Positions 43,637 through 63,442 are shown, counted from the first letter of the stretch. The stretch is 64,000 nucleotides of DNA from a virus (IMGVR_UViG_3300010340_001609:1-64000); one strand, 5' to 3'. Numbers and translations: made by a program. The notes: a model not told the origin generated them from the letters alone.

Positions 43637-44434
43637 TTATTTAACGGTTGCTTTAACTGTTTTTTCTTCCTGGGAAGTTGCTTGTGGCCTTTTAATGTTT
43701 TTTGTGGCGTCATTCATGGACGAATTATTACTTGGGTAATTTGTCGCATTTGAATTTTGCAATGCTTTTATTTTTTCTTTTTGGGCTCCAATAATTTGAC
43801 TTTTATTCTCAGTTGTTAAGCCCGTATCCAACATTACAGGTCTTCCATTTGGATCTAATCCCCAGTTATGCGGATTTGCCATATCACTTATTGCATATCC
43901 ACAATCTTTCATTACTGTAACTGCAATTAAAAAATCTCTATGAGCTTTAACTTCTGCGATGTCTTCTTTTGACGCAGCTTTTGCATTATTTGAAACTATT
44001 TGTAATGCATTTTCAAATTTTTCGAACGACTCAAATTTAAAATAAGAAGAAATTTTTTCTTTAGAGCCATCATCGAGATTTTCAACTTTTTCTGCTATAA
44101 CAAAAAGAAAATCATCTCCGACTTCGTAAATTTCTGGGATCAGTTGTGCTTTCTGCGCAATTTTACAGACCTTGCTTTCCGCTTTCGTTTGAGAAATAGA
44201 GCTTGCAATGTCGTATGTAGCTGATTCTGAAAAGGAAATTTTAATTATTTTTCCATCTCCAATATCAAATGCTGTTCTATTGGAACCCATACCTATAAAA
44301 GTTAGATTTTCTTTTGCAATTTTAAAAATTATTTTTGCTCTTTCTTCTAAAGAAAAATTTTTAAATTCAGAAACTCTTTTTATTTTTGTTAACGAATCTA
44401 CAGATTCAAAAATGAAAACTTTGAGTGATTTCAT
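43637..44434 (-). CDS. protein kinase-like protein
   Basis: Gly loop IGMGSNRTAF, IIKIS lysine, helix-C Glu, catalytic loop DMANPHNWG, DFG-equivalent LDTG. Confidence 0.75.
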   Translation of the reverse strand: MKSLKVFIFESVDSLTKIKRVSEFKNFSLEERAKIIFKIAKENLTFIGMGSNRTAFDIGDGKIIKISFSESATYDIASSISQTKAESKVCKIAQKAQLIPEIYEVGDDFLFVIAEKVENLDDGSKEKISSYFKFESFEKFENALQIVSNNAKAASKEDIAEVKAHRDFLIAVTVMKDCGYAISDMANPHNWGLDPNGRPVMLDTGLTTENKSQIIGAQKEKIKALQNSNATNYPSNNSSMNDATKNIKRPQATSQEEKTVKATVK

Positions 44435-44862
44435 TATTCTTCTTCTCTTGGGAAAGATTTTAATCTACCAATCGCATCCTGAACCGCAGCTTGTACTTTT
44501 GCACTCATTTCATCCATTATTTCTGCATAAGATTCTTGGAGGTCATCTTGAAGGCTATCTACAGACTGAAGATTTAAAACTTCAACTATTGTTTGTTCGA
44601 AATCTAATGATGCTTCTTGGGCTTTAACTCGCAATCTGCGTTCCGCGTTAATATCACGCCCAGAATTTGTTGCATTAACTGTAGATGTATTTAAATTTTC
44701 CGAAGAAGCGGAAGTGGTTTCTACTTCTTCATTATCACCAGTTGATTCTGTTGGCAATAATGTTTTTTCAGCAAATGAAACAACATGTTCCTCTTTTAAT
44801 CTTTTCTTTAATAAGGCTCTAATAGCAAGTCTTAATTCTTTTTCTTCAAAAATATATGCCAT
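44434..44862 (-). CDS. acidic hypothetical protein, putative capsid-internal protein
   Basis: N-terminal ELRLAIRALLKKRLKEE; TAATTA upstream. Confidence 0.6.
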   Translation of the reverse strand: MAYIFEEKELRLAIRALLKKRLKEEHVVSFAEKTLLPTESTGDNEEVETTSASSENLNTSTVNATNSGRDINAERRLRVKAQEASLDFEQTIVEVLNLQSVDSLQDDLQESYAEIMDEMSAKVQAAVQDAIGRLKSFPREEE

Positions 44863-44879
44863 TTTTTCTCTTTCTATAA

Positions 44880-45437
44880 TTAAGACGCAAAAAATATTTT
44901 CAATTTTATTAATGCATCTTTCACCTGTTGTTTATCTCTTAATTCTTTATTTTTAATTAATTTTGATAAAAATTTATTAAATTCTTCAGGTTCAAGTTCA
45001 TTAAATTTTGATTTAAAAAATTTCAACAAATCATAACTATCCTCTGTTTGTTCGACTAATTTTTCAAATTCTTCTAATGTTGAATCAGATGGAGATTTTT
45101 TTTCTTCCTCTTTTGGTTGATCTTCATTAGATTTTGAATCATCCTCTGTTTCTTGAACATCATCTCCATTATTATCTGTTTCATCTTTTGTATTTGAATT
45201 TTCACCCGAATCTACATTAATATCGTCTGGAGCTGCTCCTCCAAAACCTCCATCGGTACTATTTTCAATATTATCATCTGATGATGCATCATTTACTTTT
45301 GCACTTTGTTCCGCGTCAAAACCATTTGTTGTTGGTTCTGCGGGTAGATTGTCTTCTTTTTCAGTAATATTTTTTTCCGCGCTCTCATTTACTATTGATT
45401 TTCTTAACATTTTAAAAACAAATGGTTTATGATTCAT
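44880..45437 (-). CDS. acidic low-complexity protein, putative capsid-internal/scaffold-like
   Basis: Likely start ATG 45437; SIVNES, NITE motifs then a D/E/N/G-rich disordered stretch. Confidence 0.6.
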   Translation of the reverse strand: MNHKPFVFKMLRKSIVNESAEKNITEKEDNLPAEPTTNGFDAEQSAKVNDASSDDNIENSTDGGFGGAAPDDINVDSGENSNTKDETDNNGDDVQETEDDSKSNEDQPKEEEKKSPSDSTLEEFEKLVEQTEDSYDLLKFFKSKFNELEPEEFNKFLSKLIKNKELRDKQQVKDALIKLKIFFAS

Positions 45438-45442
45438 ATTAA

Positions 45443-45448
45443 TAATTA
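45443..45448. promoter_or_regulatory. candidate bidirectional late promoter TAATTA
   Basis: Centred in the 16 nt gap between divergent ATGs at 45437 and 45454. Confidence 0.45.
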
Positions 45449-45453
45449 ATAAC

Positions 45454-45603
45454 ATGAATAATGACAAAGAACAAAAAATTCTTCTTCTTATTGAAGAATT
45501 AGAAGACCGAATTGAAAAACTTGAATCTGAACTTAAAAAAATAAAAAATCTTCAAGAAAACTCATTGGAAAAACAGCCAAAAAAAGTATTACTTAAAGAT
45601 TAA
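45454..45603 (+). CDS. 49 aa coiled-coil microprotein
   Basis: MNNDKEQKILLLIEELEDRIEKLESELKKIKNLQENSLEKQPKKVLLKD; fills the gap; below ORF-track cutoff. Confidence 0.65.
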   Translation: MNNDKEQKILLLIEELEDRIEKLESELKKIKNLQENSLEKQPKKVLLKD

Positions 45604-46288
45604 TAAAATCTTCATTAAAGAATTTTTTTATTTCTTCTTTTATTTCAATTTGATTTATATAATTCTCGAATTTTTCATCTGTATAAAATTTTTCAATTGG
45701 CATGGTAAAATAATAACTTGAAGTTGAAAGTTGACCCTTTATCCAATTTTTTAGTTGTGAAAGATACCAATCTTCAAGACCAAGCATTTCCGCGATAAAC
45801 AGGCTAGAACTATAAGCACGCATTTCCCAGTGATATCTTCCGTATTTAGGAATCGGAGAAATACAAATCAAGGCAAAGAAAAGAAAAACAGATCCTAGAA
45901 TTAATAATTTAAATATGAAAAAAAATATTGAAAGTATCAATAATGGTAAGCCAAAAAAAAGCTCTGGTAAATACGTTGGCTTGTAAACTATTTTATTATT
46001 TTGTTCATCTATAGCATGAATAGATTCATGTATTATGGTTTCCATAAATCTTTTAGGATTTATCGAAGCAATTAATTCTTTGGGAAAATAAATTGTATTG
46101 TTAATTGTTGTAATATATGAAGACATAAAACGAGTGTTTATTTTAAAAAAAGAAAGAAAAAAACCAATAAAAGCCATCAGTTTGCTACTTTCTTTTTCAA
46201 TTATTTTTATTGGTTTTTTTAATTTTTTATTTAAATGATTTTGAAAAAAATTATTTGCATTTAATAAATTTACTTCTTTGTAACTCAT
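45593..46288 (-). CDS. membrane-associated zinc metallopeptidase-like protein
   Basis: TTINNTIYFP, IIHESIH, hydrophobic hairpin, downstream WEMRAY Glu ligand. Confidence 0.65.
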   Translation of the reverse strand: MSYKEVNLLNANNFFQNHLNKKLKKPIKIIEKESSKLMAFIGFFLSFFKINTRFMSSYITTINNTIYFPKELIASINPKRFMETIIHESIHAIDEQNNKIVYKPTYLPELFFGLPLLILSIFFFIFKLLILGSVFLFFALICISPIPKYGRYHWEMRAYSSSLFIAEMLGLEDWYLSQLKNWIKGQLSTSSYYFTMPIEKFYTDEKFENYINQIEIKEEIKKFFNEDFINL

Positions 46289-46355
46289 GTGCTTTCCTTT
46301 TACCCTGTCATAAATAATTTATTATATACAAATTAAAATATTTATAACAATTATA

Positions 46356-46808
46356 TTGTTTATGACATTTTTTTTAACATCCTCCACAGCAAATTATGAT
46401 CTGTTAGCGTCTGCAACAGATTATAGTATGTTAACAACTAATACTTCAGACAATATAACAATTTACGATTTTACGTGTGATAACATATCCAACACTTCAC
46501 GTTCTTTTATGTTTTATAATGATATGAATAATACAATAAAAAAATTTAACAAGACTAAAACTGGTGATTATGAATTCAATTTCAATTTCTCTTCAAAACC
46601 ATCTGTAACCTTAGAAGCTTTTAATAAATGGATCATTGTTGCTCAAAATTCATTAACTTTTAAAATTGAAATACCTTCTGATATGGATTTAACGACAATT
46701 AATTTTCGATTAATTGAAATTAGTGATATAGATTATAAATTGACAATAGAAGGAAAAAAATACAATTCAGAAGATTTGCAAAAATTTAAATCAATTAAAA
46801 TCTTTTAA
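46356..46808 (+). CDS. hypothetical protein (possibly degenerate Hsp20-like C-terminus)
   Basis: FKIEIPSDMDLTTI..LTIEGKK..KSIKI loosely resembles the alpha-crystallin domain end. Confidence 0.4.
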   Translation: MFMTFFLTSSTANYDLLASATDYSMLTTNTSDNITIYDFTCDNISNTSRSFMFYNDMNNTIKKFNKTKTGDYEFNFNFSSKPSVTLEAFNKWIIVAQNSLTFKIEIPSDMDLTTINFRLIEISDIDYKLTIEGKKYNSEDLQKFKSIKIF

Positions 46809-47283
46809 GTATATCTCTTTTTTGTTGACGATTTAATAAAGTTAAATCAAACAAAGTTTTACCTTCTAAGTGAGACAGTTCATGTTGAACTATAATAGAA
46901 AAATCTTCTGTTAAATTTTCTTCGTTTTCCTTGTTTCCATCAAACCATTTTATTGTTATAAACTTATGTCTTTTAATGGGTAAAAATATTTTTGGAATAG
47001 ACAAACATCCTTCAGTCGTAACAACAGTCTCTTCTGATGCCTCTATTATTTTTGTATTGAAAAACAGTTCATATTCTTTGCTATTTTCACGTTTTGCAAT
47101 GAAAAAATGTTCGGTTAATCCTACCTGGACAGAGGCCAAACCTATTCCTTTTGAGTCATCGCAGATTTTTTTCATTAATTCAATTTTTGTCTTGTAATTT
47201 TCGAAATCAAAATTTGCGATATCAATTTCAATTCCTTTTTTCCCTTGTATTTTATTAAATAATAAAGGTTTATTATTCATCAT
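46795..47283 (-). CDS. def: peptide deformylase
   Basis: GIGLASVQVG, EGCLSIP, QHELSHLEG. Confidence 0.93.
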   Translation of the reverse strand: MMNNKPLLFNKIQGKKGIEIDIANFDFENYKTKIELMKKICDDSKGIGLASVQVGLTEHFFIAKRENSKEYELFFNTKIIEASEETVVTTEGCLSIPKIFLPIKRHKFITIKWFDGNKENEENLTEDFSIIVQHELSHLEGKTLFDLTLLNRQQKRDILKRF

Positions 47284-49378
47284 TTTCTCCTAATATTTCT
47301 TTTAGTTCAGAAGCTTTCAACAATGTTTGTTCATTTGATCTATCAATGTTTAATGCAAGTTTTCTAATTTCTCTTTTTTGCATTATTTTTGATTGCATTC
47401 TGTTTTCAACACCAGAGCTTGCAACAATGTAATAACACTTAACGGGTTTTGTTTGTAATGTTCTGTGGATTCTAGCATTTCTTTGATCTATTTTGGCTGG
47501 GTTCCATGGTATTTCTGTATGTACGATTACATTGCTGACCGTCTGCAAGCCATCTAAACCAGTTCCGCCAGCATCAGAAGAAAGAAATATCATTGTTGAT
47601 GAATCTGTTTTAAACTGTTCTACAAGTTTTGGCCGTTGTTTTGTAGGAACATCTCCAGAATATATAACATATTTTATGTTTGGAAATTCTTTTTTAATCA
47701 TTCTTTCAATAATGGCGAGCATTTCTGTCCATTCAGAAAATAATACAAGTTTTTCATTTTGATTAATACAATGATCCATTATCATATTTTTGACTAAATC
47801 TATTTTTGGTTCATAGTAATCTTTACTAGTTTTGGTTAATAGTTCAGAAGCTGTACATGCTTGTCTTGCCTTTAACAAATAGGCATTAAGCATAATTTGT
47901 TCGTGTGCGCGCAAAGGTTTTTCCATCCCTTTTTTTAAAAGCGTATCTGCCATTATTCTATAAGTTTCTTCTACTTTTTTCTGCTCTTCTGATAAATCAA
48001 TGTATTTCGTTTCTTCTGTTAATGGAGGAAGTTTTTTTCTTAGTTCTTCTTCAGAAATTGAAAACACACAATGTTGTATTTTTTTGTGTAAAAGATCTAT
48101 ATTTTTAATACCATTATAAACAATTTTATATTTTGATGCAGCAATTACATTTTGAAAATTTCTATCAAATTTCCATTTTGGACCCAAGGCCGAATCATCA
48201 ACAATTTGCATTGTGTTATATAAATCATCTAATTTGTTTTCAATAATAGTTCCTGATAAACCAAAAAAATATTCCGATTTAAGTTTTCTTATAGCTTTCC
48301 AAGTTTTTGTTTCACTATTTTTAACCGTTTGCAATTCATCAACTATTAACATATCTGCAATATATCTTGTTTTTTTTCCTTCTCCAACTAAATCATCAAT
48401 ATATCTTGTCATCATATGGTAGTTTATAATTCCAATACCTTTTCCTTCCCATTCTTTTATTTCTTTTTGAGAGGACAGTATTACAGAATCCAAACCCGTG
48501 AAACGCTTAATTTCTTTTACCCATTGCTGTTTAAGAGTATTTGGAACTATAACAAATAATGTGAAATTTTCATTTTCATCATGAAATTTCTTGAATAAAG
48601 AAATAGAAGTAAGTGTTTTTCCTCCTCCTGGTGGAAGTGCAACCACAGACCGTTTAGCTGCCAAACAATCTATAAAAATATCCTTTTGATAATCAAATAA
48701 ACTGATACCAGGAACAATTGTTTCTAATTCCTTTTTAATTGATGTCTCTAGTATTTTTTCTTTATTAAAAAGAAATTTATTTACCTTACTAAGTTTATCT
48801 ATTTTAATTTCTGATTCTATTTTTATTCTGGCAGACCCTGAAATAAAAACTTCTAACTCTTCTGAATGTTCTAAAAGAAGTTCTTTGTGTTCTTTATTGA
48901 AATCCTTAAATAAAAGAAGCACTTCTTCTCTATGATTTGAACCAGTAACCGTGTACTGCTCTTTTGAAAAATTATATTGTATGAATGTTTTATATTTTAA
49001 TTTTTGTTTTATTTTGCTTGATACGTTATGAATGATTTTAAAAATTTCTTCTTTTTTATGATATTTAACTAATCTATGAAGCACAGCAATATGTTCACAA
49101 AAATTAAGTTCCTGTTCTTTAAATTCCGAACAGGAACAAAAATGATTTGAACTGTCATTTTTTTCGACACCAACAAATTCAATATAATCCTTGTTTATTT
49201 TAAGTTTTAATGGCAATTTTTCTTGATTTTCATCAAAACTAATTTTATACTTTTTCCCTGTGGAATATTGAAATATCTTTTTTCTTTCCAAATCATCTGC
49301 CGCAGCGGAATCTTCGAAATTTGAATATTCTTTTTCGTTTTTTTCTTTATCCAAAGATAAAAGTTCATGTTCAATCAT
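47273..49378 (-). CDS. SWIM zinc finger + SNF2-family helicase
   Basis: CSC..FCEH SWIM; PPGGGKT, DELQ, LSGT.IEN.LDDL, LFSEW, SDAGGTGL, WNPA..QRNARIHR. Confidence 0.88.
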   Translation of the reverse strand: MIEHELLSLDKEKNEKEYSNFEDSAAADDLERKKIFQYSTGKKYKISFDENQEKLPLKLKINKDYIEFVGVEKNDSSNHFCSCSEFKEQELNFCEHIAVLHRLVKYHKKEEIFKIIHNVSSKIKQKLKYKTFIQYNFSKEQYTVTGSNHREEVLLLFKDFNKEHKELLLEHSEELEVFISGSARIKIESEIKIDKLSKVNKFLFNKEKILETSIKKELETIVPGISLFDYQKDIFIDCLAAKRSVVALPPGGGKTLTSISLFKKFHDENENFTLFVIVPNTLKQQWVKEIKRFTGLDSVILSSQKEIKEWEGKGIGIINYHMMTRYIDDLVGEGKKTRYIADMLIVDELQTVKNSETKTWKAIRKLKSEYFFGLSGTIIENKLDDLYNTMQIVDDSALGPKWKFDRNFQNVIAASKYKIVYNGIKNIDLLHKKIQHCVFSISEEELRKKLPPLTEETKYIDLSEEQKKVEETYRIMADTLLKKGMEKPLRAHEQIMLNAYLLKARQACTASELLTKTSKDYYEPKIDLVKNMIMDHCINQNEKLVLFSEWTEMLAIIERMIKKEFPNIKYVIYSGDVPTKQRPKLVEQFKTDSSTMIFLSSDAGGTGLDGLQTVSNVIVHTEIPWNPAKIDQRNARIHRTLQTKPVKCYYIVASSGVENRMQSKIMQKREIRKLALNIDRSNEQTLLKASELKEILGENDE

Positions 49379-49393
49379 TGATTTTAGCCTTAT

Positions 49394-49421
49394 AATTTAA
49401 CCTAACAGTTTGACTTGTCAA
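49394..49421 (-). promoter_or_regulatory. candidate sigma70-type promoter for the SNF2-def operon
   Basis: Minus strand TTGACA-N16-TAAATT; the -35 lies in the inverted repeat TTGAC-TT-GTCAA. Confidence 0.35.
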
Positions 49422-49448
49422 GTAAAATCATAATTAGATTAAAATCTA

Positions 49449-50428
49449 ATGCTGTTTGAAGTAGCTCCCCCTGGCAAAAAATACGAAAAATTAGTCTTGA
49501 AATTGAAAAAGAAATACGGCGAAAACAGTGAGAAACCGTTTGCGCTGGCTTGGGCAATTTACAATAAAAGGAACAAACCCAGGCACGCCGACGAATCTGT
49601 CGGTGACAAGTATGGTATAACTGGAATGCAAGATCAACTGTTAGCAGAAAAAAAGAATTCAAAACAAAATGAATTTAAACTAAAAGAATTATTGTTCGAG
49701 TCTAGTTCAGATATTGAAGAAAAAGAAGATCAAATAGAAGAAGGAAATTCTTTTCAAGATATTGTAGAATCAATGTCATTGAAAGAAATATTCCAATACG
49801 CTTCTGCTAATTTTAAAAAATTAGGAGAAGGAGAAGGAAGAGCTGTTTTTGATATTGGAAATAATAAAGTTGTTAAAATTGCAAAAGATAAAAGTGGTAT
49901 AGCTCAAAATAAAAATGAATCTCTTACGTATGATGTTTTGTGAGCAATAATGAAGAAGAAATTTTACCAGAAATATTCTGGTCAGACCATAAATACAGAT
50001 TTTTAGTCGTTGAAATGGTAAATCCAATCACAGAGTCCCAGTTTGAATCTAAAACTGGGATTCCCTGGGATCAGTACGAATATGAATTAGAGGGACTCTA
50101 TCGGGCATACAAAGCTAATATATTTGATCCAAATGAAGATGATACGGTCAACATGACTGATTTAGAATCAGGTCATAATTTTTCTTCTCGATATCAATAT
50201 GAGGAATGGAGAACAGATGAAGATGGATCACTTATAACAGATGAAGAAGATGATATCAGAACTGTTACTCAGTTTGAAAAAAAGATAATAAACCTTATTT
50301 CTCAAGGTGATCTTTTATTAGGTGATTTGTTATATCTACATCATTACGGTTTAACAAATGATGGAAGAATTGTTCTTATCGATTCAGGGTTCACATTTCA
50401 AACAAAACTTGCCAATTATTATAATTGA
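49449..50428 (+). CDS. protein kinase-like protein split by a one-base frameshift at ~49935-49943
   Basis: 49449..49943 holds LGEGEGRAVF, VVKIA and helix-C QNKNE; 49940..50428 holds ILPEIF..LVVEMV, GDLLYLHHYG and LIDSG; colinear with paralog 43637..44434. Confidence 0.72.
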
Positions 50429-51477
50429 TATACTAATCCTTCAGATGAACCTGATTCACTTATTTTTTCAAATCCTAATTTAATAAGAAGGTTTTCCATT
50501 AAAGGATTGATCACTTGGGCCTGTATTTTCGTTCCGTGTTTTTTATAACGACTTATAATATTAGTTATTAATTTTGTCGCAATTCCGAGATTTCTATGAG
50601 AGTCGTCAACAGCAATACTAAATCTAACAATAGATTGAATACCAGAATCGTAATCATCTTCATTGGGCATTTCTTTAGAAATTACTGAACCACCTATCAC
50701 TTTTCCATCTTCTGTAATTGCAGCTTCAAATGGGTGTTCTATAGACATTATTCGAACCTCTGCATTTGCAAAAATTTGACTTAAATCATAAAATAAATCG
50801 CTCGCTTCAATAGTTTGACCATTCTGAAGATTTATTTCGTAATCTTCTTCATCTGAATCAGATATATCAATTATATTATAATTCGTTTTTGCTTCAAAAA
50901 GAAATTCATCCTTTTCTTTTAATGACATATCAATAATATCAATAATTTTTTGATATAATTCCTCTTCCGAATCCAAAGAATCAAGTTTTATTATTTCAAG
51001 ACTTGGTTTTACCCATACTCTAACAACTTCTCTTTTAAAAACTATTTCAACTTTTATATCTTTGTATGTAAATGATAAAATATCATTTTTAAAAAGTGCA
51101 TCTGGGAACTTAATTTTAAAATAATTTACAATGCTTTTGCTTGTTGGTTTATTACCAAGTTTTTTTAAAAAACGATGTATTTCTTTTGTTAAAGAAAGAA
51201 TACCCTGTGCTTGGATACTTTCAGCTCCTACGAATTTTATTGTTTTTTCAAACTTATATAAATTATATATAATTTTTACAGTAAGAAGTTTTTTTTCATT
51301 TGAATAAAATAATTCACCGTTAAATTTGTTGTTAACAATAAATGTTAACATAGCATGTTCTATAAAATTTGATGAATGCGTTACTTTAAATTCAAAATCT
51401 GTAATTTCAGACTGAAAAAAATCAACTATATCTTTAAGTGTTTCTGTAAAATCATAGAAAAATGGTTTTAATTGCAT
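50419..51477 (-). CDS. GNAT acetyltransferase with N-terminal extension
   Basis: C-terminal FSIAVDDSHRNLGIATKL (acetyl-CoA motif A) and NP.M..LL.KLGF (motif B). Confidence 0.8.
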   Translation of the reverse strand: MQLKPFFYDFTETLKDIVDFFQSEITDFEFKVTHSSNFIEHAMLTFIVNNKFNGELFYSNEKKLLTVKIIYNLYKFEKTIKFVGAESIQAQGILSLTKEIHRFLKKLGNKPTSKSIVNYFKIKFPDALFKNDILSFTYKDIKVEIVFKREVVRVWVKPSLEIIKLDSLDSEEELYQKIIDIIDMSLKEKDEFLFEAKTNYNIIDISDSDEEDYEINLQNGQTIEASDLFYDLSQIFANAEVRIMSIEHPFEAAITEDGKVIGGSVISKEMPNEDDYDSGIQSIVRFSIAVDDSHRNLGIATKLITNIISRYKKHGTKIQAQVINPLMENLLIKLGFEKISESGSSEGLVYQL

Positions 51478-51497
51478 TATACTTTACTATAAGTAAA

Positions 51498-52304
51498 ATG
51501 ATAGAAATTAAATCAACAGAGCAAATAAAATTAATGAAAGATTCTGGTAAACTTGCCGCGGATACACTTTTAGCAGTCGGAGAATTAATCAAACCAGGAA
51601 TAACAGGAAAAGACATTGATTTATTTGTTAAATTCTTCACAGAAAAACATGGCGGCAAATGCGCTCCTTTTGGATATAGAAATAAAATTAATGAGAATTA
51701 TCCATTCCCAGCGTATAGTTGTATATCTCCTAACAATGTAATTTGTCATGGAATTCCGACTTCAGAACCTTTAGACAATCAAATTTTTAATGTTGATATT
51801 ACAACTATTTTAAATGGGGCTCACGGCGATACAAGTGCAATGTTTTATTTAGGAAACATTTCAGAACAACAAATTAAAATAATGAAAGTCGCTAAAGAAT
51901 GTCTTGATCTTGGAATTTCCAAACTAAAAGAAAATATTAGAATTGGGGAATTAGCTTCTACAATAGAAAAACACGCGATAGAAAATAATTTCAGTATTGT
52001 AAAAGAATTTTGTGGGCATGGCATAGGAATTGGAGAAAATGGATTTCACATGGTTCCAAATATTTTACATTTCGATAATAAAGAAAGAGGAATAAGACTT
52101 CCTAAAAATTTGACACATACAGTTGAGCCTATTTTAATAGAAAAAGAAAATTATGAATTAATTTTAGATTCAAATGATTATTGGACTTTTTATTCTAATT
52201 TTATTTCTGCACAATGGGAACACACTGTTTTAATCACCGAACAAGGATGTGAAATTTTAACCCAAAGAAATGATATACTTAAAAATAGTATTGAAACTTT
52301 TTAA
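51498..52304 (+). CDS. map: methionine aminopeptidase type I
   Basis: CISPNNVICHGIP, NVDIT, HGDTS, FCGHGIG, FH..P, HTVEP, SAQWEHTV; likely start ATG 51498. Confidence 0.95.
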   Translation: MIEIKSTEQIKLMKDSGKLAADTLLAVGELIKPGITGKDIDLFVKFFTEKHGGKCAPFGYRNKINENYPFPAYSCISPNNVICHGIPTSEPLDNQIFNVDITTILNGAHGDTSAMFYLGNISEQQIKIMKVAKECLDLGISKLKENIRIGELASTIEKHAIENNFSIVKEFCGHGIGIGENGFHMVPNILHFDNKERGIRLPKNLTHTVEPILIEKENYELILDSNDYWTFYSNFISAQWEHTVLITEQGCEILTQRNDILKNSIETF

Positions 52305-53941: not shown

Positions 53942-54033
53942 TAATTTTATATTGATGTTAATTTCATCTAAATGTTTTAGTTTTGTTTATATAAAACTTA
54001 CTTTTCATATTACTAAAACTTATAATACTAAGA

Positions 54034-54453: not shown

Positions 54454-54864
54454 AAATTACTTTAGGAGGTTCATTAACCCGTATTTGACAAGTTTTATAA
54501 AGTTTTTCAAAATCTTTTTGACATAAAACAAAAAACTCATATTCATTTTTTATTTTAAAATCTTTTTTATTTTTAATAGAATGTGGATATTTTTTACTAT
54601 AAAATTGAAAAATGACCAATGATTTTTTTGAGTTTATTCCAAAAAAAGATTTGAGTTTTCTTGTCGAGAAAACACCGACTAAATCTATTTCAAGACTATC
54701 ATCAACAACAACTGTTCCAGGAATTATTTTTATTGAAGATTTGAAAAAGAAATAATGTATAGATACATAATATCCTTTTGATTTTTTTTATTTATTGTAA
54801 ATTTTACGTCTTTTGAAATCAGATCAAAATTATTTCTATTGTTATTATTTTTTATTTTTTTCAT
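54443..54864 (-). pseudogene. ~140 aa hypothetical gene interrupted by a frameshift at an A8 run (probably an intact gene with an assembly error)
   Basis: ATG overlaps the gmd stop; MKKIK..FTINKK, then the -1 frame KSKGYYVSIH..PPKVIFNL* is open to 54443; one extra A at 54782-54789 restores it. Confidence 0.6.
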
Positions 54865-55841: not shown

Positions 55842-55876
55842 TTTATGAATTATGAAACAAGTTTAGTTAAATTGTT

Positions 55877-56695
55877 TTATTTTACTTTTAACTCTAATTC
55901 AACATGAACCGTATTGAAGCTTTTTCCTAAATAAAAATCTAAATCAAGAATTTTATCTTCTAAATACAATTGATTTAATTCTGATGCAGATCGTATATTT
56001 CCATGTTTATTTTTATAAACATTCTGGACAATGTTTGCTGGGATGTTGATTAGCTTTGGCGCCTCTAAAAAACAAGACGCATATTTTATTGATCGATCTA
56101 CAGTTTCAGCCAACGCTGATTCAAATTGATTTGGGTATTTAAAATTTATTAATGCTGTTTTCCCTTTTATGAAAGAAGTTAAAAACACATTTCCATCACA
56201 AGACATTGGATACCCCCAATCACCAGAAGCTAATTCCCAATTCCAACAAAATTCGTTTAAAAATTTTGGCTGTGGGCTGTTAGTATTTGTTGCATAACAA
56301 AAATCAATCCCACTCCATAATCTTAATGAAGTCGTCATGACATTCTTATCTGTTTTTAATATTTGAATTTCTTTGTCTTTTAAAGACCAATTATTTACGA
56401 AAATAATATCATCACATAAGAACATAGTAAATTCTTTTGTTTCATCCATTAACCTCAACAATGTTTCTTTAAATGTTCCAAATTCGTTATCAGTAAAAAA
56501 ATTAATATTTGTAGGACATTTCTCTTTTAATTTTTCATAAGCGTCAAAATATTCTATTGAAGTAAAGTCATAGACAACATTTATTTGAGTTTGATTAAAT
56601 TCTTTAAATGTTTTTTCTAAACTTCTTAAATGTAAGTCAAGTTGCATTGCTCTGTCACGACTAAAAACAATTATATTTATTTTATCTTCACACAT
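55877..56695 (-). CDS. putative glycosyltransferase (GT-A-like)
   Basis: IIVFSRDRAMQL, FLCDD (DxD-like), WGYPMSCDG, PNQFE. Confidence 0.65.
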   Translation of the reverse strand: MCEDKINIIVFSRDRAMQLDLHLRSLEKTFKEFNQTQINVVYDFTSIEYFDAYEKLKEKCPTNINFFTDNEFGTFKETLLRLMDETKEFTMFLCDDIIFVNNWSLKDKEIQILKTDKNVMTTSLRLWSGIDFCYATNTNSPQPKFLNEFCWNWELASGDWGYPMSCDGNVFLTSFIKGKTALINFKYPNQFESALAETVDRSIKYASCFLEAPKLINIPANIVQNVYKNKHGNIRSASELNQLYLEDKILDLDFYLGKSFNTVHVELELKVK

Positions 56696-56735
56696 ATCTG
56701 AAGATTATAAATCTTGTGATTATTATTTGTTTTTA

Positions 56736-57176
56736 TCAATTATATAGATTAGTATCAATTTCTTCGTTAATTTCTGCTTCGATAATTCTGAAAGTGTTTT
56801 CATTAGAAAATTTATCAATAAAAAGAAAATCAAATCTATAATAGAAAACACTTTCATCTTTTTTTGGATATACCAAAGAAGTAAGAGATAAATTTATATT
56901 TCTTTTGATTTTATCTATTACAAATGGGATATCTTTTATTGATCCAATATTGTTAAATTCATTTAGCAAAACTTTTTGATCATTAAGAATTTTTTCTTTT
57001 TCTTTTGTTGATTCAAACTTAACAGCTTGTTTAAATTCTTCAAAAGAATTATTTTGAAATTCGTATAATTTTTTTATATGAGAAACAATTCTATCAAGAG
57101 CAAATAGTTCTGATGAAAATGATCCCCAAAAATCTAAACTATAATCTGAGTAATGAAAAAGATTGTATACTTTCAC
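56736..57176 (-). CDS. hypothetical protein
   Basis: 146 aa ORF. Confidence 0.55.
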   Translation of the reverse strand: MKVYNLFHYSDYSLDFWGSFSSELFALDRIVSHIKKLYEFQNNSFEEFKQAVKFESTKEKEKILNDQKVLLNEFNNIGSIKDIPFVIDKIKRNINLSLTSLVYPKKDESVFYYRFDFLFIDKFSNENTFRIIEAEINEEIDTNLYN

Positions 57177-57189
57177 TGTTTGTAACTTT

Positions 57190-57630
57190 CTATTTTTTTA
57201 GTTTTTTTTCATCTTTATCAAAAACATGTAATTCAAGTTTTCTATTAAAAACAATAACAAGTATACTATATTGTTTTTTAGAATGATTAATACCTAAACG
57301 TCTTATTTTATTTTTTTCAAATACTTTAGAAAATATATCAAATAAATGTTCATAAAAATATGAACAATCTCGATAAGATTGAAGATTTATTCGTTCTTTT
57401 AAAAGAACTGATATTAAATCATCATCAGAATTAATGAGTTTTTTGGTTAAATCTGTATGAAAAATTAAACTTTTTCTGTAAGATGGATAGGCATATTTAT
57501 ACCTTATTATTTGATAATCTAAATCAGGATCATTTTCAAAATTTGTTTTAATGCTACATAAAAGATATTCTACTGCCAAGTTTGCAACATCTTTTTCAAA
57601 GACATTTTCTGTGACTTTATCAACTATCAT
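57190..57630 (-). CDS. hypothetical protein
   Basis: 146 aa ORF. Confidence 0.55.
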   Translation of the reverse strand: MIVDKVTENVFEKDVANLAVEYLLCSIKTNFENDPDLDYQIIRYKYAYPSYRKSLIFHTDLTKKLINSDDDLISVLLKERINLQSYRDCSYFYEHLFDIFSKVFEKNKIRRLGINHSKKQYSILVIVFNRKLELHVFDKDEKKLKK

Positions 57631-57666
57631 ATTATCTATAATAGTTTTTTCGCTGAAAAAAGTAAA

Positions 57667-58299
57667 TTAAAATCTTAAATTGTTCCAAACTCTTTTAAAT
57701 TCATTAACTTCTCTATGCGTGACTTCTATTGATGGAATTGATGAAATTCTATTAATTTCATTAAATACAGACTGGGATTCAAACGCATCAGTATAATCTA
57801 GCCCTGGGTTCATAAACGAGATTCCATAAGTTGATTGTGCGCAATCGTTAACTTCTGCTTGTTTTCGACAAATATGCCCAATTCCCAGTGCATGACCGAC
57901 TTCATGCATAAATGTTGATTTTAATTCAATCGAAGAACGAATACATCCTGGGTGAATTATAATAACCCGCTGAGAAGCGATATACTCGCCAGCATAGCAG
58001 TTTCTTGTATATTGTTGATTGGTGTCTATCAATACGGAAATATCTTCTCCTGAGTCAACTAGACGTACTGTTGGGCCAATTCTATTTAATTCTTGCAATG
58101 TTTCAACTATATAATTTTTTCTATTAAATCTATTCCATTCTTCGCCAACTAAACGTAAATCTAATGATCCATATTTTTGTTCATTATGATTGTTTATTTT
58201 GACTTTATTATATATAACAAAAGACAAGAAAAATATTGCTGCAACCACAAGCAATGAAATTCCAAAATATAAAAAACCTTTTTTTGTTTGTTCAGTCAT
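57667..58299 (-). CDS. membrane-anchored metzincin (matrixin-like) metalloprotease
   Basis: N-terminal TM helix, HEVGHALGIGH, Met-turn SFMNP. Confidence 0.85.
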   Translation of the reverse strand: MTEQTKKGFLYFGISLLVVAAIFFLSFVIYNKVKINNHNEQKYGSLDLRLVGEEWNRFNRKNYIVETLQELNRIGPTVRLVDSGEDISVLIDTNQQYTRNCYAGEYIASQRVIIIHPGCIRSSIELKSTFMHEVGHALGIGHICRKQAEVNDCAQSTYGISFMNPGLDYTDAFESQSVFNEINRISSIPSIEVTHREVNEFKRVWNNLRF

Positions 58300-58307
58300 A
58301 TTAATAA

Positions 58308-58838
58308 TTAAATTATTATTTTTCTTTTGATAAAGAATTCTTTATCTGCGTTGTAATCACAATACTCTCCAAAGTACAAATTTTCAAGAAAATTATTTCT
58401 TTTATCTGTATATTCAATATAATAGTTTTTATTATTAAAATCTAATAAGTAATAGGTACTATAAAATGACATTAATTGTTCAAACCATTTAAATGTTTTG
58501 TGATTTCCATGACTATTAAATAATTCGTGAAATAACTGATCAAAATCGTCTGAAAAATTCTTTTTATATGGAAGATTCGTATAGTTTTGCCATCCTTCAA
58601 TTTTAAACTGAGTTTCAAAAGACTTTTTAAATTTTGAGTTTATTACTTGTTCAAATTCTACACGATCATCTTCATTTATTTTTCTATATGAAAAAACAAG
58701 ATCAGTATAAGGAGCTGGAATACCCAATAAAACTAAATTAGTATTATCCTCGATGTAGTCGGGCGATAAATCGTAAATATTTTTGATTATAAAATTCCTA
58801 TACAATCTAACTGAATCTTCTATTATTTTTTCTTGCAT
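58308..58838 (-). CDS. hypothetical protein
   Basis: 176 aa ORF. Confidence 0.55.
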   Translation of the reverse strand: MQEKIIEDSVRLYRNFIIKNIYDLSPDYIEDNTNLVLLGIPAPYTDLVFSYRKINEDDRVEFEQVINSKFKKSFETQFKIEGWQNYTNLPYKKNFSDDFDQLFHELFNSHGNHKTFKWFEQLMSFYSTYYLLDFNNKNYYIEYTDKRNNFLENLYFGEYCDYNADKEFFIKRKIII

Positions 58839-58876
58839 TGCTTTATTTTTTTCTATTTATTTAGAGCTGAATTGTA

Positions 58877-59419
58877 ATGAAAAAGAAAAAAATTTTAATA
58901 TCTGAATCAAATTTTAAAAAATTTATTAATAAGCTTCTTTTGGAAGTTATGATTGATATGAATGAAATCAATCAATTAATGAGATTAAAGCCAATTTTAA
59001 TTGCATTTTATAATATAGAAAATGACTTGGAAGAATTATTAAGGAATAATTTTCAAAATTATTCTAATTTAGTAGAATATGCAAATCGATTAGATCAAAT
59101 TGGAAATAATATTCCAAAATATATAGATAAAATTGAAGAATTAAGTTCTAAAGAAGCAGATCAATATTCTGAATTTAAAAAATTTTCACAAGCTGTATTG
59201 TCTAGAATAATTTTAGAAGATGAAAAATTATCTAATGTAGAAAAAATTCTTGGATCTCTTGGCCCACAACAAATTGAATTTGGTAAAGAAGGAATTTCTT
59301 TAATAAGAAAATTGAAATATCAAATCTCAAGATTAAAAGAAGTCCAGTCAAAACTTAATACACAACAATCTTCACAGCAAAACACAACTCAAGTTAACCA
59401 ACAAGTTCAACAGTCTTAA
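58877..59419 (+). CDS. putative capsid-internal protein
   Basis: N-terminal KKILISESNFKKFINKLLLEV; TATTTA upstream; Gln-rich tail. Confidence 0.6.
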   Translation: MKKKKILISESNFKKFINKLLLEVMIDMNEINQLMRLKPILIAFYNIENDLEELLRNNFQNYSNLVEYANRLDQIGNNIPKYIDKIEELSSKEADQYSEFKKFSQAVLSRIILEDEKLSNVEKILGSLGPQQIEFGKEGISLIRKLKYQISRLKEVQSKLNTQQSSQQNTTQVNQQVQQS

Positions 59420-59732
59420 TGTCTGAATTTAAAATATCTTCATAATGAAGATATGGTTTTCCTGTATCTGTGTCAAACCCTTTTCTTAAAAAGGTTAATA
59501 CTGTTATTGTTTTTTTATCAAAATTTCTTTTATTGATTCCCACCAATTCAGCGTTGAAAAATTCAATTGTCCTGTCAATTTCATTCGCATAATGTAGATA
59601 ATTTTTCGTTAAGAATACCCTATATGTTTTATTTAATTCATAAGATATTTTTTTAGTTTCAGGAATAATCTCTTTATTTTCAATAAATTTTAATATTAAA
59701 TCTAAAAAACGCAAAATTGCAAGATATAACAT
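59394..59732 (-). CDS. hypothetical protein
   Basis: 112 aa ORF. Confidence 0.5.
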   Translation of the reverse strand: MLYLAILRFLDLILKFIENKEIIPETKKISYELNKTYRVFLTKNYLHYANEIDRTIEFFNAELVGINKRNFDKKTITVLTFLRKGFDTDTGKPYLHYEDILNSDIKTVELVG

Positions 59733-59747
59733 GCTTTAATTTTAATG

Positions 59748-60257
59748 TTAAGGTTTATAATATGTTCCAAAAATATAATCAAATAGTGGGTAAACAACAT
59801 TAAAAGAATGTTCCTGATTTCCTTTTTGATGATGTTCAACATGCCAAGGAATCCAATTTTCAGCCCATGTTTGATCTAAATGAGATAACATATGAACAAT
59901 ATAATATAAAAATCCATATGATATTATGCCAGCTGCAACAAATGGAGAAATTGGAACTAATGATTTGTATATGACAAGCATTGCGAATGTTAATGCTATA
60001 AATTCTGGAGTTTGAAACAAAAATTTTATTCCCATTTTATAATCTGGGTCTGTCATTTGTTTGCGACATTGTTTATGATGTTTGTACCAATGAAAGTTCC
60101 AAATTGAATTTTTCTTTTTACCTAAACCATGTAATACATGTTTATGAAACAACCATTCTGTTAGATTTCCAATGGTTAGCCCAATCATTGTTTTACCTAT
60201 ATTTTTCACCAAGACATTTAGCATATCTTTATAACTCCACTTGTTATTAAGTAACAA
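59748..60257 (-). CDS. fatty acid hydroxylase / sterol desaturase family membrane di-iron protein
   Basis: His boxes EWLFHKHVLH, HWYKHH, YYIVHMLSH, WHVEHH and terminal FNV..PLFDYIFGT. Confidence 0.85.
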   Translation of the reverse strand: MLLNNKWSYKDMLNVLVKNIGKTMIGLTIGNLTEWLFHKHVLHGLGKKKNSIWNFHWYKHHKQCRKQMTDPDYKMGIKFLFQTPEFIALTFAMLVIYKSLVPISPFVAAGIISYGFLYYIVHMLSHLDQTWAENWIPWHVEHHQKGNQEHSFNVVYPLFDYIFGTYYKP

Positions 60258-60267
60258 AACAAATAAA

Positions 60268-60594
60268 TTATTTTTTATATTTTAGAATGACTTCATCGCT
60301 TATTTTAAATGCGAGTATTGCTTCTTGGTCATAATATTTTATTGTATGATCTATAATTTTTTCAATTTGAGTTCTTGTCGCTAAGATTCTAACAGGAATC
60401 ATTCGTTCGATAAACAATTTACCAGAGGGAGAAACCCAATTTCCTTTTGTTACAGGGCAAATTGTTAATCCACCAGAGATTTCTCTAATTTTTTTATCCC
60501 AAACTTGATGATATCTTTTTCTAAAAGGTTTGCCGTTATTTCTAATTGTTGGTACTAAAATTTCCCACATACATATCATTTCTTGTGTTTCCAT
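60268..60594 (-). CDS. PII/GlnB-like fold protein (DUF3574-like)
   Basis: GGLT....GNW..P.G.LFIE..IPVRI..YYDQEAI pattern. Confidence 0.5.
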   Translation of the reverse strand: METQEMICMWEILVPTIRNNGKPFRKRYHQVWDKKIREISGGLTICPVTKGNWVSPSGKLFIERMIPVRILATRTQIEKIIDHTIKYYDQEAILAFKISDEVILKYKK

Positions 60595-60649
60595 ATTATT
60601 TCACACCCTTGTCGCGAATAGGGTATTTTAGGGACTCAAGAGAGATTTG

Positions 60650-61048
60650 TCAATCGGCTGCGTTCAAACCAAACAGTTGAGATAAATGACGACTTTGTTC
60701 TTCAGGATTATTTTGATATTGCTCTATTAATTTTTTAAGCTCTTCTTTTTTTGCAGCATCAATAGATTCAATTTCTATCTTATGTTTTTCCTTTAATTCT
60801 TGTAAAGTTGCTTGAAATTTTTCATCTATCTCTTTTTGTTTTTTAGCCTGAGCTTCTTCCAAAATTTTTAATTCTTGCAACTCTTTTTCTCTAGCTTTTA
60901 ATCGATCTTGAAGAATCGAAATAAACTCAAATGCCTTTTGTTGTTTGTAGAACAAAAAACATATTAATGCCGTAGCAGCCAATCCAATTATTATCGCATA
61001 TGTTTTAAACGATGAGAAAAAAGATATAAGTTTTTCTTTAAAAGTCAT
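60650..61048 (-). CDS. membrane-anchored coiled-coil protein (inner-spanin-like)
   Basis: One N-terminal TM helix followed by a long coiled coil. Confidence 0.45.
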   Translation of the reverse strand: MTFKEKLISFFSSFKTYAIIIGLAATALICFLFYKQQKAFEFISILQDRLKAREKELQELKILEEAQAKKQKEIDEKFQATLQELKEKHKIEIESIDAAKKEELKKLIEQYQNNPEEQSRHLSQLFGLNAAD

Positions 61049-61069
61049 AATATTATTAAATATTGACTT

Positions 61070-61450
61070 TTAGTTTTTCATTCCACCAGTACCACCAGAA
61101 GAAGACTTGTTGTCAGAAAATGCCAATAAAATTTCAGAATTTTTATTCTGCTCTTCAACTTCCTTGATAACTTCCCCAGTCAACATACTTAATGAATTAT
61201 TTAATTCATCAATGATACTAAGATAACTTAAATTAATTTCTTCAAGTTCAATAACTCTTTTATCTAATTTAATCATTAATTTAATTAAATTATCTAATTT
61301 ATCAAGAACCATTTGATTTTCAAATTTATCAAGCGTCTTCCTCAGTTGTTTTGAACTTCCCGATGATGTTAAGATATTTTTCGTATTCTTCTGAGTTGTT
61401 TTCTTTTTCGAGACTGTTGGTGTTGTTTTTTTGGTTTTTGAATTCTTCAT
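61070..61450 (-). CDS. hypothetical coiled-coil protein with basic N-terminus
   Basis: 126 aa ORF. Confidence 0.55.
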   Translation of the reverse strand: MKNSKTKKTTPTVSKKKTTQKNTKNILTSSGSSKQLRKTLDKFENQMVLDKLDNLIKLMIKLDKRVIELEEINLSYLSIIDELNNSLSMLTGEVIKEVEEQNKNSEILLAFSDNKSSSGGTGGMKN

Positions 61451-61805
61451 TTTCTTCTTTAATAATATTATTACTTTTTTTTCTATTTTTAAATGAATTA
61501 TTACTTTCTAATATAGAATATATATTTTTTTTATCTTTTGTTAAAGATTTTATTAAGACAAGTTCATCACTTTCTTTTAAGTTAATAATTTCATTTATTA
61601 AAAGTTCAAATATCTCTTTATAAGATTCATTTTGTTCTATTATATGAAATACGAAACTTATGAATTCTTTTAATGATATATTTTTATTATGTAAAATTCT
61701 TTTAACTTGAATTAAGCTTTCAATTGAAAAATCTAACTTAACCGTATATTTGTCTGATTTATTTATTAACTTATCACTTGTTAAAAGTAATTTTTCTTTA
61801 TTCAT
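61329..61805 (-). CDS. hypothetical protein (possible ribbon-helix-helix-like); true stop probably ~61470
   Basis: YTVKLDFS..VKRIL..ISLKEFISF; the 122 nt overlap disappears if the A8 run at 61475-61482 is A9. Confidence 0.5.
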   Translation of the reverse strand: MNKEKLLLTSDKLINKSDKYTVKLDFSIESLIQVKRILHNKNISLKEFISFVFHIIEQNESYKEIFELLINEIINLKESDELVLIKSLTKDKKNIYSILESNNSFKNRKKSNNIIKEENEEFKNQKNNTNSLEKENNSEEYEKYLNIIGKFKTTEEDA

Positions 61806-61819
61806 ATTAACCTAAAAAA

Positions 61820-62503
61820 TTAAACAGCACCACCACCAGTGATATCTCCACCGCTAGGTAAAGAACCACTGCCATCGGCAACGTTACCATTTCCTGAAAA
61901 ATATGCGGACCCACCCTGTAAAGATGTTGAAGTTTTTGAATTTGGAGAAAGCTGATAATATTTTTTCAAAACAATCATGCATTCTTTTGCAGTTTGTTCA
62001 TTGTAATTTTTTAGAAGATACACATAAACACGATTTAAAATCACCGTTTTTGGATCCAACATTACATCGTAATTGCCAACAAGTCTTGCTATGTTTGAAG
62101 CAAATTTTTGAATATTCAGCATTGTTTCTGGAACTTCTGGTTCCGTAGGAGCAGTTTCTTCAGCTCCTTTATTTGAATCATCTCCTCCCAAATCCAACCC
62201 GCCAGCATCATCTGGCGATCCTAATTCTAAATCTGGATCGTCCGCCTCGAAAAGTATATTTGAGATACTAATTTTTTCTGTTAAGTTTGCTAATGCGGAA
62301 GGTATGGTTTTAGGAGCTTCTCCAACGCCAGAAAACATTTGTGATGCAGGAATAGATTCTCTTTCATATTGAATTAGATATCTATCTACTTTTTGGTCTA
62401 AAGACATGTCTTGTGGAAGAGTAGTTGCTTTGGTAGAAACCACTGGAATAGTTTGAACGTCTTTTTTCTTCTCTTCTTTAAGAATTAATTTCTTAAGTTT
62501 CAT
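61820..62503 (-). CDS. putative capsid-internal/scaffold-like protein
   Basis: MKLKKLILKEE, NLTE, NILFEA motifs then an acidic Gly-rich linker. Confidence 0.6.
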   Translation of the reverse strand: MKLKKLILKEEKKKDVQTIPVVSTKATTLPQDMSLDQKVDRYLIQYERESIPASQMFSGVGEAPKTIPSALANLTEKISISNILFEADDPDLELGSPDDAGGLDLGGDDSNKGAEETAPTEPEVPETMLNIQKFASNIARLVGNYDVMLDPKTVILNRVYVYLLKNYNEQTAKECMIVLKKYYQLSPNSKTSTSLQGGSAYFSGNGNVADGSGSLPSGGDITGGGAV

Positions 62504-63396
62504 TTTGATTTTTTACTTTCTTGCATTGTGGTTAATGGAGGTAATGAAATTTTTTCCGCATTTGTTACTGGGTTAATTGGCATTTTATTAATTGGGTCTG
62601 CTAGAACGACTGATGATTCTAGTCCTGAAGTATACATTGGTTGAACCGCATAAATTTGATCCAAATTGGCTCTTTCTGCAATCATCATTCTTTGTTCAAT
62701 CACTGACCAATTTAATTCTTGAAGCATTCCATTTAAATATCCCTTTTTATCAGCATTATAATCTTTAAACCAAGCATGATGCCAAGTATCAATAACAATC
62801 ACGGGAATTCCTAATAGTGGAACATTTTCCGTGTGTTTTTCGACAACACAATTCATATATTTTTTTGTGTAAGGATCATAATAACAAACTACCCATCCTT
62901 CTGTGGCAACCATACCACATGAACGAAAATCAAGTTGCCACTGTTCAAATGTCCCAAAATCTTTGGATAATCTAATAAATGGAATACTATCTGCTCTGAT
63001 TTGAGAATTTAAATCTGAAATATTTGAAAAATATAATTCATGAAATTTAATTCCGTTAAAATTATGTTGTTCATCAAGTTTTAATCGTCTAAATTCAGAA
63101 TCATTTGGATTCATGGAATCCATGACTTTATTGATAGTATCAATCTTAGGACTAATGTGATTTAAACTTTCTATATAACTTCTATATAAATTAAAATGAT
63201 TATCCTTTGTAAAGGTACCAAGTTTTTCAGTTTTTAATATAAAAGGCTTGGCAATTAAATAAACAGCTTCCGAAATAAAAGTTTTTGTTTCAATAATTTT
63301 TTGGGTTATTTCATTTACTTTTTTTGGGAATTGTTTATTTAATTTTTCTCTTATAACTGAATTGATATTCAAATCTTTTGGTTTACTGTCACTCAT
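62500..63396 (-). CDS. Fe/Mn superoxide dismutase family protein with terminal extensions
   Basis: Ligand motifs HFNLY..Y, FHELYF, DFGTFEQW, GWVV, P.IVIDTWHHAW..DY, LNW. Confidence 0.85.
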   Translation of the reverse strand: MSDSKPKDLNINSVIREKLNKQFPKKVNEITQKIIETKTFISEAVYLIAKPFILKTEKLGTFTKDNHFNLYRSYIESLNHISPKIDTINKVMDSMNPNDSEFRRLKLDEQHNFNGIKFHELYFSNISDLNSQIRADSIPFIRLSKDFGTFEQWQLDFRSCGMVATEGWVVCYYDPYTKKYMNCVVEKHTENVPLLGIPVIVIDTWHHAWFKDYNADKKGYLNGMLQELNWSVIEQRMMIAERANLDQIYAVQPMYTSGLESSVVLADPINKMPINPVTNAEKISLPPLTTMQESKKSK

Positions 63397-63442
63397 TGCA
63401 AAAATAATTATGCAATTATAAAAGAAACCTATTATAAGAAAT

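Follow-up and report, generated by a model that had tools for sequence, protein, structure and literature searches.

The DNA considered here, called the window, comprises the initial 64 kb of a viral contig of 92,324 bp (IMGVR_UViG_3300010340_001609; 29% G+C) whose ends are not closed. On this contig a tail and baseplate block is followed by a region, beginning at about 43.6 kb, in which several genes encode proteins that start with, or contain, a similar short leader ending in Glu, and then by a replication block. We interpret the leader as a probable T4-type capsid-targeting and cleavage tag. The idea goes back to an initial annotation of the sequence, which had proposed that eight genes of the region, among them two kinases, a GNAT acetyltransferase and a superoxide dismutase (SOD), encode enzymes that are packaged in the head and matured by a protease. 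The genes concerned are listed below, with an arrow at the putative cleavage point.

43637..44434, minus strand: K1, a kinase-like protein of 265 amino acids (aa) matching phrog_4301 (E 2.9e-12)
44405-44434, minus strand: the K1 leader, residues 1-10, MKSLKVFIFE↓S
44434..44862, minus strand: p44434, 142 aa, no assigned family, the first gene of a pair with K1
44880..45437, minus strand: p44880, an acidic low-complexity protein, likely start ATG at 45437, 5 nt past the TAATTA at 45443-45448
49449..50428, plus strand: K2, kinase-like, in two frames (49449-49943 and 49940-50428), with a phrog_4301 match (E 7e-8) on the first frame
50419..51477, minus strand: a 352-aa in-frame fusion of a domain X (residues 1 to ~190) with a GNAT domain (PF00583)
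58877..59419, plus strand: p58877, 180 aa, with the leader-like N-terminus MKKKKILISE↓S
61820..62503, minus strand: p61820, a mostly disordered viral protein of 227 aa with the leader MKLKKLILKE↓E
62500..63396, minus strand: an Fe/Mn-SOD-like protein of 298 aa (Sod_Fe_C, E 1.7e-16, 60.6 bits against a cut-off of 20.9)
66149-66775 of the contig, plus strand: K3, a third kinase-like gene (phrog_4301, E 2.3e-16) with the leader MKLKKIIFE↓T and a TAATTA upstream

The initial annotation had relied on the occurrence of any (I/L/V/F)-x-E within the first 60 aa, and all the peptide motifs that it cited are found in the open reading frames (ORFs) to which it had assigned them. That pattern does not discriminate, however: the 29,997 residues contain 717 instances of [ILVF]-x-E, at least one occurrence lies within the first 60 residues in 78% of 101 ORFs ([ILVF]-x-E-[SAEV] in 33%), and the carriers include DnaB, the DnaE pieces and the tape measure protein. 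Enrichment of the generic motif was at chance level and was rejected as a marker, and since the annotated genes had been picked for that motif, comparing them with the remaining genes is circular. Four of the cited sites (RLKE↓E, ITE↓K, LLLE↓V and MQE↓S) are without support. What had been overlooked is that the signal is a narrower, N-terminal tag, M-x(3-7)-hydrophobic-[ILV]-F-E, whose Glu falls at residue 8-12. When all N-termini were listed, similar starts appeared on four unrelated or distantly related proteins, K1, p58877, p61820 and K3, the last of which lies just past the window and had been missed. The Glu is at residue 10 in K1, p58877 and p61820 and at residue 9 in K3, shortened forms of the tag are present at the N-termini of p44434 and of the N-terminal part of K2, and the similarity between leader proteins stops after about 10 residues.

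The significance of this tag becomes visible in a complete relative from IMG/VR, G001, a genome of 390,884 bp with terminal repeats. Proteins shared by the window and G001 are 37-75% identical and their gene order is similar, so that, judged by sequence, the window's phage is an uncultured, deep T4-superfamily megaphage of ~390 kb, of whose genome the contig would be a 92-kb fragment. A strict core, [ILVFM][ILV]FE no more than 9 residues after a Met, was counted by regular expression after Mets within the first 60 residues and after later Mets. In G001 it follows 19 of 1,016 early Mets as against 4 of 1,335 later ones (p=1.6e-4), and we regard the refined tag as weak on the window alone and as real once relatives are included. 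The census gives 19 leader genes in G001, namely those of six phrog_4301 kinase-like proteins, a GNAT, an ART-PolyVal ADP-ribosyltransferase (E 7e-16), a ParB-C-like protein and proteins that we could not assign; the tag is common to proteins of unrelated fold. Five consecutive leader genes of G001 start MKIK(P/S)LIFE; three of the products are kinase-like and two are unrelated to them. A stretch of 20 kb holds this row together with the capsid and protease genes, about eight ORFs separating the row from the capsid gene.

In the kinase-like proteins the tag is conserved as strictly as the active site. F9 and E10 of K1 are kept in all 8 metagenomic orthologues, and among 15 kinase-like homologues only 21-29% identical just 10 columns are invariant, including F9, E10, K65, E86, D184 and D203, with G48 and G50 nearly so. 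We take K65, E86, D184 and D203 to be the beta3 Lys, the alphaC Glu, the catalytic Asp and the metal-binding Asp, and the two glycines to belong to the Gly-rich loop. An AlphaFold2 model of K1 has a pLDDT of 78, with leader residues 1-11 below 50 and disordered. In a Foldseek search of the PDB its best match was PRPK/Bud32 (E 1.3e-4, probability 1.0, a moderate TM-score of 0.40-0.46), followed by RIO, choline kinase and APH, and K1 is accordingly modelled with a protein-kinase-like fold of the Bud32/RIO kind. The two kinases of the initial annotation are therefore kinase-like by phrog_4301, by the fold match of K1 and by the invariant residues, yet neither K1, K2 nor the G001 paralogues matched a Pfam family at E<=0.01, their sole match being PHROG 4301, whose function is not annotated. 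A profile search placed 4,095 representative clusters in the kinase-like family at E<=0.001. Many other short members have different N-termini bearing (I/L)-x-E, and in two kinase fusions the core is internal, just ahead of the kinase domain. Some of the profile matches P0009-P0012, P0019 and P0025 carry two to four tandem kinase-like domains in 600-970 aa. Searches with tblastn against 50,697 phage records gave no match for K1 or for the family member P0108, and another member, P0140, matched only hypothetical proteins of three cultured phages.

Two genes of the window carry the tag internally. In K2 the ancestral leader, L-L-F-E↓S, is internal (nt 49689-49700) and continues the frame of what is left of a gene upstream, whereas the orthologues in G001 (237 aa) and in a second relative, G002 (236 aa), are single intact ORFs that start exactly at the leader. 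K2 itself has two frame problems: the ATG at 49669, next to the A-run at 49677-49679, is out of frame by one base, and the kinase domain is broken at the T-run 49936-49939, before a TGA stop. These single-base problems could be assembly errors, gene decay or slippage.

The GNAT gene presents the same arrangement in an intact frame. The GNAT part matches Acetyltransf_1 (PF00583) over residues 247-322 (E 8.9e-6, 26.4 bits against a cut-off of 20.7), which bears out the acetyltransferase of the initial annotation, and domain X of the fusion bears an N-terminal leader of its own. The former GNAT leader, F-L-F-E↓A, is found at the fusion junction (nt 50893-50904). The GNAT of G001, a protein of 166 aa (24.3 bits), begins with the leader, and in G002 domain X (190 aa) and GNAT are separate genes about 4.5 kb apart, each of them tagged; both GNAT orthologues start exactly at the internal site of the window gene. 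Since the orthologues of K2 and of the GNAT start at the tag, the sites that had been described as lying in linkers are present as reported but are former N-terminal tags at fusion junctions. At the join two short peptides resemble each other, the C-terminal E-E-F-M-F of domain X and the tag of the GNAT, which suggests that a deletion of ~4.3 kb by recombination created the fusion. A search for related loci with the GNAT part alone found nothing.

Among the smaller proteins, p44434 has a short I-F-E↓E at residues 4-6 and a TAATTA at 44877-44882, and its G001 orthologue (61% identity) has the same N-terminus with V replacing I. The N-terminal region of p44880 contains I-V-N-E↓S, and in its G001 orthologue (37% identity) the corresponding position is occupied by L-K-E↓E; from its composition, p44880 may be a protein of the prohead-core type. 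The weakest member of the tagged set is p58877. Both the leader of p61820 and a second site, I-L-F-E↓A (nt 62246-62257), are kept in the G001 orthologue (71% identity); the Atlas cluster of this protein is viral and its structure model is of low confidence.

The SOD-like gene forms an operon with p61820, with a TAATTA at 63405-63410. Its product aligns with the Fe-SOD 1coj (E 1.7e-20), and the two sequences share His, His, Asp and His at the four positions that we presume to be those of the metal ligands; the Sod_Fe_C match and this alignment agree with the SOD of the initial annotation, and the Pfam N-terminal SOD domain was unmatched. The protein lacks the standard tag. It has instead a variable N-terminal extension of about 43 residues ending in I-S-E↓A (nt 63268-63276), and in 112 SOD homologues some 40 residues of variable sequence lead up to a site with I, L or V at P3 in 112/112, E at P1 in 111/112 and A at P1' in 103/112. 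The operon is adjoined by a gene for an 877-aa protein with an SO2946-like C-terminal domain and a TATTTA upstream (window 63444-64000, the ORF continuing to contig 66077).

The tagged genes are linked to a promoter-like hexamer, TANTTA. The boxes that the initial annotation had placed 5-23 nt ahead of start codons are all present: TAATTA at 44877, 45443, 49431 and 63405, TACTTA at 51490, and TATTTA at 58854 and also at 58858. Its statement that the tape measure and baseplate genes have the box as well is true of the tape measure gene, with a TAATTA at 41045, but the gp26-like hub gene has none in range. TANTTA is depleted in the window overall (207 occurrences against 415 +/- 19 in shuffles), and yet it stands 5-23 nt upstream of 28 of 100 gene starts as against 3% of random positions, with 12-fold enrichment for TAATTA and 5-fold for TATTTA; no extended promoter consensus was found around the hexamer. 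The co-occurrence of motif and box, a check that the initial annotation had put forward, was run for the refined tag in G001, where TANTTA lies 2-25 nt upstream of 14/19 leader genes and of 69/508 others (p=1.3e-8). The five leader genes without a box lie inside operons. On the contig 15 of the 37 structural-block genes have the box ahead of them, as do 11 of 32 genes in the region of the tagged genes but only 3 of 33 in the replication block, and in the Flavobacterium phage immuto TATTTA is found upstream of the terminase, portal, sheath and tube genes. This distribution would fit transcription of the TANTTA genes as a late class. In a record of the same phage (vB_FspM_immuto_2-6A, 100001-150000), many genes upstream of the head module have Lys-rich N-termini ending in (I/L/V)-x-E at residues 8-13 and the structural genes have TATTTA(TAA) upstream; by these features, this cultured phage may hold the same kind of tag system.

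A protease that could recognise such a tag is encoded by the relatives. G001 and G002 both have a Peptidase_S77 gene (E 2.5e-24 and 6.1e-25, both over the cut-off) and a Gp23-family capsid gene (E 3e-59). T4 gp21 and the protease of G001 share 29% identity (E 3e-18), the columns of T4 His85 and Ser140 being kept. The capsid protein of G001 matches T4 gp23 (E 3e-29), and its closest cultured relatives are those of Microcystis, Flavobacterium and Rhodothermus phages. The gp21-like protease that the initial annotation expected is thus present in the relatives but not on the 92-kb contig, and for the window's phage it is presumed from them. The expected capsid cleavage site has a possible counterpart in V-L-M-E66↓A-N of the G001 capsid protein and I-V-S-E↓A-N of that of immuto, which occupy the same alignment column. 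A second protease, unrelated to gp21, is encoded at contig 79152-80864, a 570-aa subtilase (Peptidase_S8, E 5e-50) with a signal-peptide-like N-terminus.

The closest known parallel is the capsid-targeting sequence (CTS) of T4, for which we draw on three papers (PMC9026906, PMC3012670 and PMC5512222). The prohead protease gp21 cleaves after L/I-X-E, and the first 10 residues of the internal protein IPIII are its CTS and are sufficient for head targeting, residues 4 and 7 serving for targeting and residues 8 and 10 for processing (PMC9026906). The internal proteins of T-even phages are a diverse set whose only common feature is the CTS (PMC3012670), and Alt is taken up in the head, shortened by gp21 and injected along with the DNA (PMC9026906, PMC5512222). 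MKTYQEFIAE↓A is the start of IPII and IPIII in the T4 record, the Glu is at residue 10 of gp24 and residue 9 of gp22, and short I/L-x-E sites are likewise found at the beginning of gp22 and gp67. The system described here is alike in several ways: unrelated proteins share an N-terminal leader of some ten residues that ends in (I/L)-x-E, the lineage has a gp21-family protease and a gp23-family capsid protein, and K1 is identical to IPIII at residues 1, 2, 7, 8 and 10. There are also differences. The form here is hydrophobic-[ILV]-F-E with a nearly fixed Phe at P2, the complete relative has 19 candidate genes of this kind as against a handful in T4, and the putative cargo consists of enzymes, whereas the internal proteins of T4 are small basic DNA-binding or anti-restriction proteins. 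The leader-bearing ADP-ribosyltransferase of G001 recalls Alt, which is likewise a host-modifying enzyme and is loaded into the head, but it belongs to the ART-PolyVal family and not to the Alt/VIP2 clade, and no packaged T4 counterpart was found for the kinase-like, GNAT and SOD-like enzymes of the window.

In phiKZ-like phages and SPN3US the residue at P3 of the cleavage sites is small, whereas here it is I, L or V as in T4, and the capsid and protease genes of the relatives are detectably T4-type. Those phages do have many head-internal proteins matured by a diverged gp21 homologue that cleaves after Glu, with cleavage logos that PMC9026906 gives separately from that of T4. Polyvalent proteins, in which injected ADP-ribosyltransferase, reduced protein-kinase and GNAT domains have been predicted (PMC5512222, Iyer et al. 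2017), have the same kinds of predicted activities, and the two fusions of the window likewise join modules in one polypeptide; the modules here are, in contrast, mostly separate small proteins with a tag each instead of domains of one giant protein, and the kinase-like proteins fall in no Pfam kinase family. For the SOD-like protein there is a distant homologue in phage PA5oct, EST35_0261 (25.7% identity, E 7e-6), with an N-terminal I-A-E↓A, which differs in having 182 aa and a 13-residue lead-in instead of about 43. EST35_0261 was detected in purified particles, where it is listed as a structural protein identified from 3 peptides that cover 31% of it (Table S5, PMC7318152); seven proteins classed as virion-unrelated enzymes appear in the same proteome (PMC7318152). 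By analogy, this homologue would be the sole, indirect point of virion detection for tagged or cleaved cargo, and together with the conserved site it makes packaging of the SOD plausible. No description of CTS-tagged kinases, GNATs or SODs was found in the literature searched, and none of fHe-Yen9-04 proteomics was found in that search.

A conserved tag that unrelated proteins share and that is linked to a promoter-like box, together with the T4-type protease and capsid genes of the relatives, points to a T4-type tag for capsid targeting and cleavage, carried by a large, enzyme-rich set of injected, host-modifying cargo, a reading to which we give a probability of about 65%. The core of the initial annotation, protease-matured head cargo including kinases and a GNAT, is strongly, if indirectly, supported by the gp21 and gp23 families of the relatives, the shared leader resembling the T4 CTS and the link to the box; its generic motif is not. 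Head targeting, cleavage, late timing, ejection and substrates we infer as follows. The short disordered N-terminal tag would carry the protein into the core of the assembling prohead, where a gp21-type protease would cleave after the tag Glu, and the released enzymes would remain in the head alongside the DNA. Ejected into the next host, they would phosphorylate, acetylate or otherwise modify their targets ahead of phage gene expression. The cargo genes are probably transcribed, like the structural genes, from compact TA(A/T/G)TTA promoters. Because the tag lies inside the ORF at the fusion junction, the products of K2 and of the GNAT fusion would be cut apart like small polyproteins.

It could be argued that the tag is real but has another purpose, as a translation-initiation or mRNA element of one promoter class, as a degradation or chaperone signal, or as a tag for tail or baseplate assembly. 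The window's tag genes do adjoin baseplate and tail genes and not head genes, but in G001 five of them lie within the 20-kb stretch that holds the capsid and protease genes. The tag is always accompanied by a TANTTA box and a very short 5' leader, so that conservation at the RNA level is partly possible; yet the tag residues are fixed while the leader codons vary synonymously, and the tag persists at internal fusion junctions that have neither promoter nor start codon. With I, L or V at P3 and Glu at P1 in agreement with gp21 specificity (PMC9026906), we consider such a different purpose unlikely. A slightly lower probability attaches to the idea that some of the tagged proteins, chiefly p44880, p44434 and p61820, are prohead core or scaffold proteins that are degraded by the protease and expelled, like T4 gp22, gp67 and gp68, and are not injected. 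The acidic low complexity of p44880, the disorder and two conserved sites of p61820, and the short I/L-x-E starts of T4 gp22 and gp67 would suit it, core proteins being cleaved to several fragments (PMC9026906). This explanation is inapplicable to folded enzymes with intact catalytic residues, that is the kinase-like proteins, the GNAT, the SOD-like protein and the ADP-ribosyltransferase of the relative, and it complements the reading as injected cargo more than it competes with it. Composition and paralogy could also produce such N-termini, given that in a genome of 29% G+C Lys-rich starts followed by Ile, Leu or Phe and Glu are common and that kinase paralogues may have inherited one N-terminus. 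The ubiquity of the generic motif, the frequency of 'MK' starts, the window-only statistic and the fact that three of the clearest cases are paralogues are in line with this, but the tag also stands on GNAT, ART-PolyVal, ParB-C-like and unassigned folds, its F-E is as invariant as the catalytic residues, and the enrichment after early Mets in G001 and the co-occurrence with TANTTA speak against it as well; we consider this explanation highly improbable. All three are less well supported than the targeting and cleavage tag.

Several observations nevertheless weigh against that reading. The Pfam and PHROG scans detected no capsid, portal, terminase or prohead protease gene on the 92-kb contig, and on this contig alone the strict core follows 4/201 early Mets and 1/348 later ones (p=0.06). 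The capsid cleavage site is not placeable by alignment with T4, whose L-T-E65↓A lies within a T4-specific insertion, so the match to G001 and immuto holds at the level of the motif only. In the kinase-like family the strict core was found in the first 14 residues of only 22/97 short members, and the tandem multi-kinase homologues are without it at their domain junctions. K2, being frame-shifted, may be a pseudogene, and p58877 had no homologues in five related records, in IMG/VR patterns or in the Atlas. Genes for a thymidine kinase and for a glycosyltransferase have TANTTA upstream as well. A match to phrog_4301 was not found in T4, immuto or PA5oct, in a search that was uninformative since its controls were silent too; the kinases accordingly fall outside the virion data of cultured phages.

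If the tag does act as proposed, the principle of T4 targeting would also hold for uncultured giant phages that are only distantly related and for new classes of enzyme (kinase, acetyltransferase and SOD). We suggest, more tentatively and at slightly less than even chances, that in a deep T4-related branch of megaphages a modular tag of 9-10 residues loads about twenty different enzymes into the capsid, among them an expanded family of minimal kinases, a GNAT, an ADP-ribosyltransferase and a SOD, that the virion delivers this modification and anti-oxidant toolkit at DNA entry, and that the tagged fusions are natural polyproteins cut by the prohead protease. The components that phages inject besides DNA are known for only a few model phages, and cargo of this kind would suggest that host takeover through injected modifying enzymes is widespread. 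The combination of the tag with a gp21-type protease would then give a simple rule for predicting virion cargo in metagenomes, PHROG 4301, which is large and unannotated, would acquire a function, and new tags for loading foreign proteins into phage heads would become available.

The surrounding genes were assigned from Pfam and PHROGs. The tail and baseplate block extends from 1 to 43.6 kb and includes a gp6-like wedge gene and, close to the tagged genes, the following two genes.

37432-41028: tape measure gene (Pfam/PHROG scans)
42740-43612: gp26-like hub gene (Pfam/PHROG scans)

The replication block holds a five-piece DnaE with inteins, ribonucleotide reductase, ThyA, dihydrofolate reductase and DnaB, the fragments of the DnaE-type polymerase and the intein pieces lying at contig 68079-86065. 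Peptide deformylase, methionine aminopeptidase and the peptidyl-tRNA hydrolase PTH2, a set that processes nascent chains, are encoded at window 46795-47283 and 51462-52304 and at contig 73592-73999. At contig 77221-78564 there are four tandem paralogues of 112-116 aa, which have no family match and share the block (K)HW..VP..YTGIIEW.NGD.

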